DNA from: a virus
Taxonomy: Duplodnaviria > Heunggongvirae > Uroviricota > Caudoviricetes
Virus record (IMG/VR): IMGVR_UViG_2734482566_000007
Direction: 5' to 3' (one strand)
DNA: 4,597 nucleotides
Shown here: one piece after another, positions 822-3,819 of the stretch
Layout: each line of letters starts with the position of its first letter
Numbering within the stretch: position 1 is the stretch's first letter
Notes under the pieces: model-generated
What the model was told of the DNA's origin: nothing
What the model saw: the letters and a program-made list of their open reading frames with translations, nothing else
The model's database searches: none
Program-made: the position numbers and the translations under genes

Positions 822-849
822 ATTCTATCTGCGAAGGTGCGCGAATCAA
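822..849 (-). promoter_or_regulatory. Candidate sigma70 promoter for the 453..740 gene: TTGATT (-35, plus 844-849), 16-bp spacer, TAGAAT (-10, plus 822-827)
   Basis: Hexamers read on the minus strand directly downstream of the hok terminator and about 80 nt upstream of the ATG at 740. The same two hexamers recur upstream of hok. Confidence 0.4.
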
Positions 850-867
850 ATTCACCGGAAATAAACA

Positions 868-913
868 ACAAAAAACCCGCCGAAACGCTGAGAGATCACA
901 GCGATGGGCGGGT
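868..913 (-). terminator. Rho-independent terminator ending the hok transcript
   Basis: On the minus strand, stem ACCCGCC (913-907) pairs with GGCGGGT (881-875), with an inner CGCUG/CAGCG helix, followed by a U6 tract (plus A-run 870-875) and more U-rich sequence. Not a terminator in the plus orientation. Confidence 0.7.
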
Positions 914-953
914 TAAGTGCGGGTGCGTTGAGGATGCCTGACACATCAGAGGT

Positions 954-981
954 GGGCGGGGATGGGATCAGCTCCCCGCCC
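954..981 (-). other. Perfect 9-bp GC-rich stem-loop (GGGCGGGGA / TCCCCGCCC, 10-nt loop) in the hok 3' UTR
   Basis: Plus 954-962 is the exact reverse complement of 973-981. It lies 9 nt after the hok stop and has no U-tract, so it is a structural or stability element, not a terminator. It shares the CCCGCC/GGCGGG motif with the downstream terminator, which would allow alternative long-range pairing as described for hok mRNAs. Confidence 0.5.
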
Positions 982-989
982 GGTCACTC

Positions 990-1145
990 TTACTTCCTGG
1001 ATTCGTAGTCTACGAAGACAGCGACCTCCGTCTGGCCGGTTCGGATTCGTACCTCACAGAGGTCTTTCCTCGTTACCAGTGCCGTCACTATGACGGTTAA
1101 ACAGATGACGATCAGGGCGATTAACATCGCCTTTTGCTGCTTCAT
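990..1145 (-). CDS. hok: Hok/Gef family type I toxin, 51 aa (MKQQKAMLIALIVICLTVIVTALVTRKDLCEVRIRTGQTEVAVFVDYESRK); closest in my recollection to HokD/RelF
   Basis: ATG at 1145-1143 with AGGAG 9 nt upstream; stop TAA 992-990. Single transmembrane helix followed by the conserved RK.LCE.R....EVA..Y Hok signature. The 70-aa ORF in the track is an in-frame upstream extension and is unlikely to be the real start. Confidence 0.85.
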   Translation of the reverse strand: MKQQKAMLIALIVICLTVIVTALVTRKDLCEVRIRTGQTEVAVFVDYESRK

Positions 1146-1321
1146 AGCCTGCTTCTCCTTGCCTTTCGGCATGTAAGAGGCTAACCTACATGTGCAAAGC
1201 ATGAAATTGGCCTCAGATTAATGTTAAGCGTCTTGCCGGACGCGTAATGTTAACTGGGGCTTTTCTCTATCTGCCTTTTGGTGTTCATGCCTGAAGCAGA
1301 TAGCCTCAAGCACCCGCAGTC

Positions 1322-1351
1322 ATTCTACTTACCTCGCCAATATGAAATCAA
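1322..1351 (-). promoter_or_regulatory. Candidate sigma70 promoter for hok: TTGATT (-35, plus 1346-1351), 18-bp spacer, TAGAAT (-10, plus 1322-1327)
   Basis: Read on the minus strand between the queH stop (1373) and the hok start. Would give a leader of roughly 170 nt, comparable to known hok mRNAs. Confidence 0.45.
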
Positions 1352-2620: not shown

Positions 2621-3043
2621 TCACAGTATCGCCTCCTGAAAATTACCCTGATAGAAAGCCAGTACACGCTGCATAGCTTCGCTCTTCCGGCACTCGCGAC
2701 AGATTATATTCAGGCGCCTGTCGTAGCGGCGTATTTCTCCGTCAGGTAATGACCAGATAAGGTCCGGATCAACAACAACCGGTTTCCTCACCTTTACTCT
2801 CGAGAGTTTTTTGCGGGCGCTTTGCCAGTCCTTGCGAGCCTGTTCAGACGGGAATAAGCCGTAGCCAGAATTATATACATCACCACTTGCGACCAGTTCT
2901 ATGCATAAGCGACCGACAGACGCACGACTGATACCTGTTTCATCTGACAACTGCCGAATCGTGACCCGACCGTCCTGATGCACGAGTTCCACAATTCGCG
3001 TCTTCAGTTCTTCCCGCTGTTCGGGAGTAAAAGGTTTCGCCAT
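2621..3043 (-). CDS. Ren-like winged-HTH protein, 140 aa (resembles lambda Ren in the HTH and C-terminal ...RECRKSEAMQRVLAFY... segments, with an internal insertion of about 45 aa)
   Basis: ATG 3043-3041 with AGGAGG about 6 nt upstream; stop TGA 2623-2621. Lies immediately downstream of the DnaC-like gene, the same position as ren after P in lambda. HTH segment VTIRQLSDETGISRASVGRL. The Ren assignment is from a recalled sequence and needs a search to confirm. Confidence 0.65.
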   Translation of the reverse strand: MAKPFTPEQREELKTRIVELVHQDGRVTIRQLSDETGISRASVGRLCIELVASGDVYNSGYGLFPSEQARKDWQSARKKLSRVKVRKPVVVDPDLIWSLPDGEIRRYDRRLNIICRECRKSEAMQRVLAFYQGNFQEAIL

Positions 3044-3057
3044 AAATCCTCCTGAAA

Positions 3058-3819
3058 CTACTTAACAACCCTCGAATGGCTAACATTCGGACGCCAGCTC
3101 TCCCAGTTAAAATTCACCCAGCGCCCGCCGTTCATGACCATGCGATCCATCACCCGCTCGCCGAGCAATGTTTTCATCACCTCATAGTTCAGGTGATGAA
3201 AACATTGCTCGGCGAGCGGGTGATGGATCGCATGGTCATGAACGGCGGGCGCTGGGTGAATTTTAACNNNNNNNNNNNNNNNNNNNNNNNNNNNNNNNNN
3301 NNNNNNNNNNNNNNNNNNNNNNNNNNNNNNNNNNNNNNNNNNNNNNNNNNNNNNNNNNNNNNNNNNNNNNNNNNNNNNNNNNNNNNNNNNNNNNNNNNNN
3401 NNNNNNNNNNNNNNNNNNNNNNNNNNNNNNNNNNNNNNNNNNNNNNNNNNNNNNNNGATAGCTGCCGCTAAGTGATTCTTCCCGGTACCAGGTTTTCCGC
3501 TGAACGCAAAATTTGTACACCCGGTCATCAGTTCATCGGCGATGGATTTCGCCTGGCTTAACGCGTATCGCTGGCCGTCGTTCTGCACCTGGTAATTCGC
3601 AAACGAGCATTTACGGTGCAACGGCTGGATGCCTGAGCGATTCAGAATTTTTTCCACCCGCAACTGGCGATTCAGGCGGTTGATCTCCTCGCTACGTTTC
3701 TGGCCTTCAGCAAGTTGCCACTCGCGCCACTCCGCTACCGTTCTGAATGGGGCGGTTACATGTGGCGGGGTCAGTCGGCGGATGCGTTCCAGAACGCCGC
3801 CTGTCGCAATATTTTTCAT
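3058..3819 (-). CDS. DnaC-like replicative helicase loader (AAA+ ATPase), coding sequence interrupted by an assembly gap and a fold-back artifact
   Basis: ATG 3819-3817. N-terminal part closely resembles E. coli DnaC / prophage YdaV-type proteins, including Walker A FSGKPGTGKNHLAAAI; genuine C-terminus ...NYEVMKTLLGERVMDRMVMNGGRWVNFNWESWRPNV... Residues between are N-masked (3268-3456) or come from an inverted duplicate (3191-3267). Confidence 0.85.
   Translation of the reverse strand: MKNIATGGVLERIRRLTPPHVTAPFRTVAEWREWQLAEGQKRSEEINRLNRQLRVEKILNRSGIQPLHRKCSFANYQVQNDGQRYALSQAKSIADELMTGCTNFAFSGKPGTGKNHLAAAIXXXXXXXXXXXXXXXXXXXXXXXXXXXXXXXXXXXXXXXXXXXXXXXXXXXXXXXXXXXXXXXVKIHPAPAVHDHAIHHPLAEQCFHHLNYEVMKTLLGERVMDRMVMNGGRWVNFNWESWRPNVSHSRVVK
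3106..3267. repeat. Perfect 77-bp inverted duplication (arms 3106-3182 and 3191-3267, 8-bp spacer) ending exactly at the N gap; probable fold-back assembly artifact
   Basis: The reverse complement of 3191-3267 is identical to 3106-3182. The left arm encodes the conserved DnaC C-terminus; the right arm gives non-homologous residues (VKIHPAPAVHDHAIHHPLAEQCFHHL) where the AAA+ core should be. Confidence 0.8.
3268..3456. other. Assembly or scaffold gap, 189 N
   Basis: Run of N. Gap plus artifact arm totals 266 nt, close to the roughly 260 nt expected for the missing DnaC-like core, so the reading frame is fortuitously preserved. Confidence 0.95.

Follow-up and report, generated by a model that had tools for sequence, protein, structure and literature searches.

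Introduction

Among described type I toxin-antitoxin loci, the closest to the one considered here is hokW-mokW-sokW of the Shiga-toxin phages, for which it was demonstrated that HokW is toxic, that sokW RNA counteracts it, that the locus roughly doubles the release of phage Sp5 and that mitomycin C depletes sokW RNA (PMC8621323). The molecular logic of the family is described in most detail for plasmid R1, whose model supplies the names of leader elements used below. In this system the GC hairpin located after the stop codon acts as a terminal stem shielding the processed mRNA from 3′ exonucleases, mutations breaking the stem destabilise the truncated mRNA, and translation of mok is considered to matter, not its product (PMC9841398). 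As for chromosomal representatives, hokA, hokC, hokD and hokE of E. coli K-12 are considered to have lost their activity through IS elements or rearrangements (PMC12214031), and intact chromosomal hok loci tested earlier gave no post-segregational killing (preprint 10.1101/2025.08.07.668861), so that activity of the locus considered here in its native context is not guaranteed. A preprint of 2026 catalogued tens of thousands of Hok homologues and described their enrichment in prophages.

Here, we addressed a hok-like region found at positions 868-1351 of a 4,597-nt stretch of tailed-phage DNA (IMG/VR record IMGVR_UViG_2734482566_000007), the whole of which is referred to as the window. A preliminary description had presented this region as a self-contained toxin cassette. 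The parts of the locus were delineated by sequence, folding and comparison, and the dynamics of the system are extrapolated from plasmid R1 (PMC9841398) and from hokW. For comparative purposes one genome per species was scanned, yielding 47 loci, in most of which the leader search placed the 5′ end; the alignment comprised 40 distinct transcripts from Escherichia, Shigella, Kluyvera, Citrobacter, Photorhabdus, Pantoea, Erwinia and others.

Results

Identity and genomic surroundings of the locus

The region 868-1351 is with high confidence an intact type I toxin-antitoxin locus of the hok/mok/sok family and an allele of the hokW-mokW-sokW module of phages; in a lambdoid prophage of E. coli it is flanked by queH on one side and by ninB-like genes on the other. 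Positions 911-1335 share 92% of their DNA sequence with the hokW locus of 933W and VT2-Sakai (Sp5), and this near-identity to an already characterised system makes the locus an ordinary one: its kind is known and its toxin CDS is essentially annotated already. The proposal that hok here forms an independent unit, equipped with a promoter, a structured leader and a terminator of its own, is borne out by the Rfam RF01794 match to the leader, the Pfam HOK_GEF match to the toxin, the above-mentioned identity to 933W and the predicted pairing between 5′ and 3′ ends. The term "independent hok-type mRNA" was thus correct with regard to the transcription unit but incomplete, having missed the gene of Sok antisense RNA on the plus strand, the presence of which makes this a complete type I toxin-antitoxin system and not a toxin cassette alone.

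Every long ORF of the window is encoded on the minus strand, and together they represent the early-right region of a lambdoid prophage. They include a ydaU-like replication gene, a DnaC/YdaV-like ATPase gene interrupted by an N-run, a DUF977 gene (2621-3043), a zinc-ribbon ORF (2207-2620), queH (1373-2059), an ORF of 95 aa belonging to an unannotated family (453-740) and a DUF1367 gene. The neighbor directly upstream of hok, in the nin-like region, was correctly recognized before as queH; its product is a homologue of the epoxyqueuosine reductase QueH (DUF208; Pfam QueH, E = 1.9e-65). Also upheld is the statement that the arrangement differs from relBE-hokD: in the Qin prophage of K-12 hok comes right after relE and is devoid of its own leader, mok and sok, whereas in the window the upstream neighbor is queH and the leader is complete. 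A perfect 77-nt fold-back (3106-3182/3191-3267) abuts the N-run 3268-3456 in the ydaV/DnaC-like gene; since the complete genome of E. coli FDAARGOS_943 has ordinary sequence there, it is an assembly artefact, and Rfam microRNA hits at 3128-3245 produced by this error were discarded as spurious.

Positions 840-1372 recur without a single difference (100% identity) in the chromosomes of E. coli FDAARGOS_943 and FDAARGOS_944, where the copy belongs to a prophage and is placed between Cro/CI-type regulators and lysis genes. Among 5,426 complete genomes of E. coli, 4,713 contained part of a 533-nt query, the median number of copies per genome being two, and a query spanning the hok leader together with 330 nt of queH was covered by at least 80% in 797 of the 5,426. 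The junction being this common, the novelty of the queH context implied in the preliminary description does not hold, and the idea of a new queH-linked toxin arrangement was abandoned. The literature search on QueH in prophages gave nothing relevant.

Promoter and leader of the hok/mok mRNA

The putative promoter of the hok/mok mRNA occupies positions 1322-1351 of the minus strand and consists of −35 TTGATT (1351-1346), an 18-nt spacer and −10 TAGAAT (1327-1322). The consensus scan recovered this previously noticed site; taken alone, the scan is a weak indicator, because two such sites were registered in the 800-nt region against 0.8 ± 1.0 in shuffled sequences. The real support comes from the −10 hexamer, which is kept in 933W and in the O18 prophage, and from G1315, located 7 nt downstream of it and coinciding with position 1 of the RF01794 match. 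The −35 hexamer differs between alleles, being TTGGCG at a spacing of 17 nt in O18 and TTGATT at 18 nt in the window. Compared with the common queH-linked allele represented by O18, the window has lost 13 nt between the −35 and −10 regions, and TTGATT is thereby brought in register. The hexamers of this promoter reappear at a 16-nt spacing (TTGATT-N16-TAGAAT; 822-849, minus strand) in another promoter-like site, which closely follows the hok terminator and precedes the 95-aa ORF.

The RF01794 model aligned end to end with positions 1315..1140 (model positions 1-157, 117 bits against the gathering score of 59, E = 4e-27). Since this family, named "sok", matches the hok-coding strand, it in fact models the leader of hok mRNA. 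The leader extends over 1146-1315 of the minus strand and begins at the presumed transcription start G1315 with the tac element GGGUGCUUGAGG (1304-1315), which constitutes the 5′ end of the mRNA. Further elements of the R1 model (PMC9841398) follow on the same strand: ucb AAGCCCC (1262-1256), the Sok-target hairpin, the mok Shine-Dalgarno (SD) sequence GAGG (1214-1211), dcb AGCCUC (1182-1177) and the hok SD AAGGAG (1160-1155).

The toxin and mok reading frames

The hok gene (990-1145, minus strand) codes for a peptide of 51 aa, and its assignment to the Hok/Gef peptides is supported by the Pfam HOK_GEF model (PF01848), which matches with 79.9 bits (E = 9.8e-23) where 22 are required; the subfamily model for Hok in NCBIfam gave 55 bits, under its own cut-off of 73. 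The peptide is identical to HokW in 50 of 51 residues (98%) and to HokD of K-12 in 46 of 51. The RefSeq entry for identical DNA reads "type I toxin-antitoxin system toxin HokD" (WP_014532198.1), a name reflecting peptide similarity only. The Tyr47 codon UAC (1005-1007, minus strand) is embedded in CUACGAA, which resembles the tRNA-Arg anticodon loop recognised by TadA, and the hexamer UACGAA is invariant in all 40 homologues. As A-to-I editing recoding this Tyr to Cys was reported for hokC, hokD and hokE mRNAs (PMC12214031), by analogy the window's hok codon is likely to be edited as well.

No mok-like reading frame had been seen earlier in another frame, and the only upstream extension of hok was stated to be in-frame. 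The latter is right (990-1202, minus strand; 70 codons, sharing the stop codon with hok), but this extension is mok itself. In 933W mokW is an ORF of 213 nt ending at the hokW stop codon, that is, an in-frame 5′ extension, and mokC of K-12 is annotated in the same manner; the ORF 1202-990 is thus the mok equivalent and no sign of an absent mok. Its SD sequence GAGG is placed 9 nt upstream of the mok ATG. An ATG is found at the homologous position in each of the 40 loci, and the frame it opens is variable: in 29 it is the frame of hok, in 5 it is the +1 frame with an overlapping ORF of 55-68 codons, and in the other 6 it starts an ORF of 19 codons stopping at the hok start. Conservation of position accompanied by variability of frame is consistent with what was published on mok, namely that the act of translation is important and the product is not (PMC9841398). 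By analogy, hok translation in the window would be coupled through mok.

The Sok antisense RNA

The plus strand opposite to the leader carries a putative gene of Sok antisense RNA, the antitoxin, of about 71 nt (~1194-1264), with coordinates transferred from the sokW misc_RNA of 933W; no indels separate the window from 933W across this stretch. Its promoter (1159-1187, plus strand), with −35 TTGCCT (1159-1164), a 17-nt spacer and −10 TAACCT (1182-1187), was positioned by homology to the sokW start, since it was not reported by the consensus promoter scan and its −10 hexamer is weak. The spacer of 17 nt recurs in 40 of 40 homologues, where −35 is TTGCCT or TTGACC and −10 mostly TAAYCT. The predicted RNA is complementary to mRNA positions 52-122, covering ucb, the target hairpin, the mok SD and the mok AUG, and in its fold an unpaired 5′ tail is followed by a long hairpin and a terminal GGGGCUUUU tail (−30.2 kcal/mol, z = −4.9). 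As judged from sequence, the locus therefore has a candidate cis-encoded Sok with its own promoter over the mok initiation region.

Elements of the 3′ region

The stem-loop of 9 bp noticed earlier immediately after the hok stop was reproduced by folding (954-981, minus strand; 954-962 pairs with 973-981; −20.9 kcal/mol, z = −2.6), and G-C pairs of its core are kept in 35-38 of the 40 homologues. By its place in the R1 scheme this GC hairpin is expected to be the protective 3′ hairpin of the processed (truncated) mRNA. Further downstream, 56 nt after the hok stop codon, starts the duplex that the fbi element CCUCAACGCACCC (921-933, minus strand) may form with tac (−21.5 kcal/mol).

The intrinsic terminator (870-914, minus strand) proposed from its hairpin and U6 run was likewise substantiated. 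It is built of an 8-bp outer stem AACCCGCC/GGCGGGUU (914-907/881-874), an inner 5-bp stem CGCUG/CAGCG and U6 (875-870), with a predicted energy of −25.1 kcal/mol and z = −4.8. A simple terminator scan gave no hit at 868-913, because the loop exceeds its 8-nt limit, and the structure was found by folding. The outer stem (CCCGC/GCGGG) is common to the window, K-12 hokD and O18, and instead of a UUCG loop the window has about 27 nt with an inner stem of their own, an insertion lengthening the 3′ tail to be removed. The sequence downstream of the terminator is unrelated between alleles, so that the terminator marks a mosaic junction.

Folding of the full-length and truncated mRNA

The RNA of 454 nt corresponding to positions 1315-862 has a minimum free energy (MFE) fold of −191.5 kcal/mol (z = −7.3). 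The long-range 5′-3′ pairing, for which folding of the transcript had been proposed as a check, is predicted indeed: in the MFE fold the first 12 nt, i.e. tac (1315-1304), pair with fbi (933-921). In the same fold ucb is paired with the mok SD, and a conserved helix CUCUUAC/GUAAGAG across the stop codon closes the coding region.

The unconstrained fold of the 3′-truncated mRNA did not produce the open tac/ucb form, the mok SD still being paired, which means that the switch is permitted by the energy model and not predicted by it. A comparison of constrained folds, in which the tac/ucb stem was forced, was used in its place. The forced stem costs +12.8 kcal/mol in the full-length RNA versus +2.7 kcal/mol in RNA lacking the 3′ end, and in the forced form the mok SD is paired with dcb, as in the R1 model (PMC9841398). 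What these calculations suggest is only that the open form would become cheaper after truncation.

Conservation of the end pairing among homologous loci

In the per-sequence duplex search the complement of the first 12-14 nt was located 45-56 nt after the hok stop in almost all loci, exceptions including hokC of the K-12 type disrupted by IS186, a degenerate copy (L010) and locus L044. The hokC of K-12 itself was unusable for testing the tac-fbi pairing, as its 3′ region is removed by IS186. Compensatory changes are represented by GGGUGC/GCACCC versus GGGCGC/GCGCCC and by GAGGC/CCUC versus GAGAC/UCUC; at tac position 4, 24 sequences have a U-A pair and 12 a C-G pair. When the 40 transcripts were imposed on the window's fold, standard pairs made up 83.8% of cells, compared with about 41%, within 37-43%, when partners were slid. 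Double-sided changes were registered in 39 pairs, a level reached by none of 500 shuffles, with the reservation that these controls are not independent of sequence relatedness. The outer half of the tac-fbi helix scored poorly in the column-wise count, because a bulge shifts the alignment in Photorhabdus sequences, yet showed continuous pairing in the per-sequence duplex search. The predicted pairing of the mRNA ends is thus backed by covariation.

Several members of the collection deserve mention in their own right. Near-identical hok sequences were met on tiny contigs assigned to Xanthomonas pisi (L023, 431 nt), Acinetobacter idrijaensis (L018, 275 nt) and a 'Candidatus Scatousia' MAG (L052), which are most likely contamination by E. 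coli or phage DNA and not true hosts. Genomes of Photorhabdus contain many hok copies, and in Photorhabdus temperata (L033) two loci (556-925 and 1185-1543) stand in tandem at a spacing of about 630 nt; the Hok ORF of the second is shortened.

Discussion

Proposed mode of action

Projecting the R1 and hokW behavior on the elements described above, the following sequence of events may be envisaged. A weak constitutive promoter would give a transcript some 445 nt long (1315 to ~870), in which tac pairs with fbi and ucb sequesters the mok SD; owing to both interactions the full-length RNA should be stable, untranslated and not capable of binding Sok. Slow 3′ exonucleolytic trimming would then take off the terminator and fbi and halt at the GC hairpin 954-981, after which tac could pair with ucb, exposing the mok SD, the mok start codon and the Sok-target hairpin. 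As long as the short-lived Sok RNA is supplied, it would pair there, blocking mok translation and leading to RNase III cleavage. Once Sok is lost, mok would be translated, and either the hok start would be opened or, in this in-frame variant, ribosomes might read straight through hok. The Hok peptide is then expected to insert in the inner membrane, whereby the cell would be killed or lysed. For the prophage the probable benefits are its retention and help with lysis and release after induction, the latter by analogy with what was published for hokW of Sp5.

Possible operation within the early operon

The first alternative questions the autonomy of the cassette and supposes that it is mainly expressed within an early rightward (pR-type) operon, through the replication genes and queH, and that at induction the read-through interferes with the convergent Sok promoter and switches hok on. 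Everything from the replication module to the ninB-like gene is indeed on the hok strand, the stretch from the stop codon of queH (1373) to the hok promoter contained no terminator-like site in the scan, and in Sp5 sokW RNA disappears and HokW appears after RecA-dependent induction (PMC8621323). Against such dependence speak the homology to 933W, where the cassette has quite another genomic position and the shared sequence extends only from a few bases before −10 to just after fbi, as fits a self-sufficient module, and the R1 model, requiring tac near a free 5′ end. We regard this alternative as unlikely, and it complements the main explanation rather than opposing it. A related scenario, in which antiterminated read-through from the early operon at induction silences the convergent Sok promoter and thus releases Hok, is made conceivable by the co-directionality of hok with the early operon and the lack of a terminator separating it from queH. 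We would give this scenario a lower probability still; if true, hok/sok would be an induction-coupled helper of lysis timing and not an addiction module.

Possible decay versus retained integrity

That the locus is a decayed, non-functional hok remnant, weakly or not transcribed and playing no biological role, appears the least probable of all: the fate of most K-12 hok loci, the failure of intact chromosomal loci to support post-segregational killing (both cited in the Introduction) and the distance of both hok and Sok promoters from a strong consensus match speak for it, but the elements lost or disrupted in K-12, namely the promoter −10, tac, ucb, mok SD with its ATG, Sok promoter, fbi and terminator, are all intact in the window, the locus contains no IS element, and hokW-sokW, the closest characterised relative, related to it at the level of 92% for DNA and 98% for the toxin, is functional.

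Accepting the region as an intact hok/mok/sok locus, one has to admit that it is of little importance in itself, given that hok/sok is a textbook type I family, its enrichment in prophages is described and a phage allele of 92% identity was tested experimentally. It does illustrate that genome annotation keeps the toxin CDS only and leaves out mok, Sok and the RNA elements.

Comparison with known systems

Between the −10 region and a point just after fbi the locus matches hokW-mokW-sokW of 933W and Sp5 in 92% of its DNA, and the two share an in-frame mok of 70 codons, a matching position of Sok RNA and a lambdoid phage as a carrier. In 933W, however, the cassette is found close to the right end of the genome, with a ygiW-like gene behind it and no terminator adjacent to it, whereas that of the window follows queH in the nin-like region and possesses its own terminator. 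Since the cassette of 933W is found elsewhere and has no terminator next to fbi, the shared module can be delimited as the segment from just upstream of −10 to just past fbi. The two also differ in the −35 region, in the sequence of the GC hairpin and in one substitution of Hok, E50R.

The hok/mok/sok locus of plasmid R1 has the same order of elements, i.e. promoter, tac, ucb, Sok target, mok, hok, GC hairpin, fbi and terminator, and in both systems the Sok promoter is embedded in dcb. The two Hok peptides are only about 44% identical, mok of R1 is in a different frame from hok and that of the window is in frame, and the R1 locus is plasmid-borne and serves post-segregational killing. The hokC (gef)/mokC/sokC locus of E. 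coli resembles the window in the in-frame mok, the equivalent position of Sok and an identical tac, GGGUGCUUGAGG. It differs in that IS186 cuts off the 3′ part of K-12 hokC 20 nt after the stop codon, in a Sok-target hairpin shorter by about 20 nt and in its location in the core chromosome instead of a prophage.

Finally, hokD (relF) of the Qin prophage of K-12 has in common with the window the GC hairpin, fbi and the terminator stem, but on the 5′ side the homology does not reach beyond roughly 17 nt before the hok ATG: relBE stands where the window has the promoter, tac, ucb, the mok start and the Sok gene. In agreement with the literature (PMC12214031), this replacement identifies K-12 hokD as a 5′-truncated derivative, the intact form being that of the window, so that the locus described here may be used as a clear instance of the ancestral, complete version of K-12's truncated hokD.
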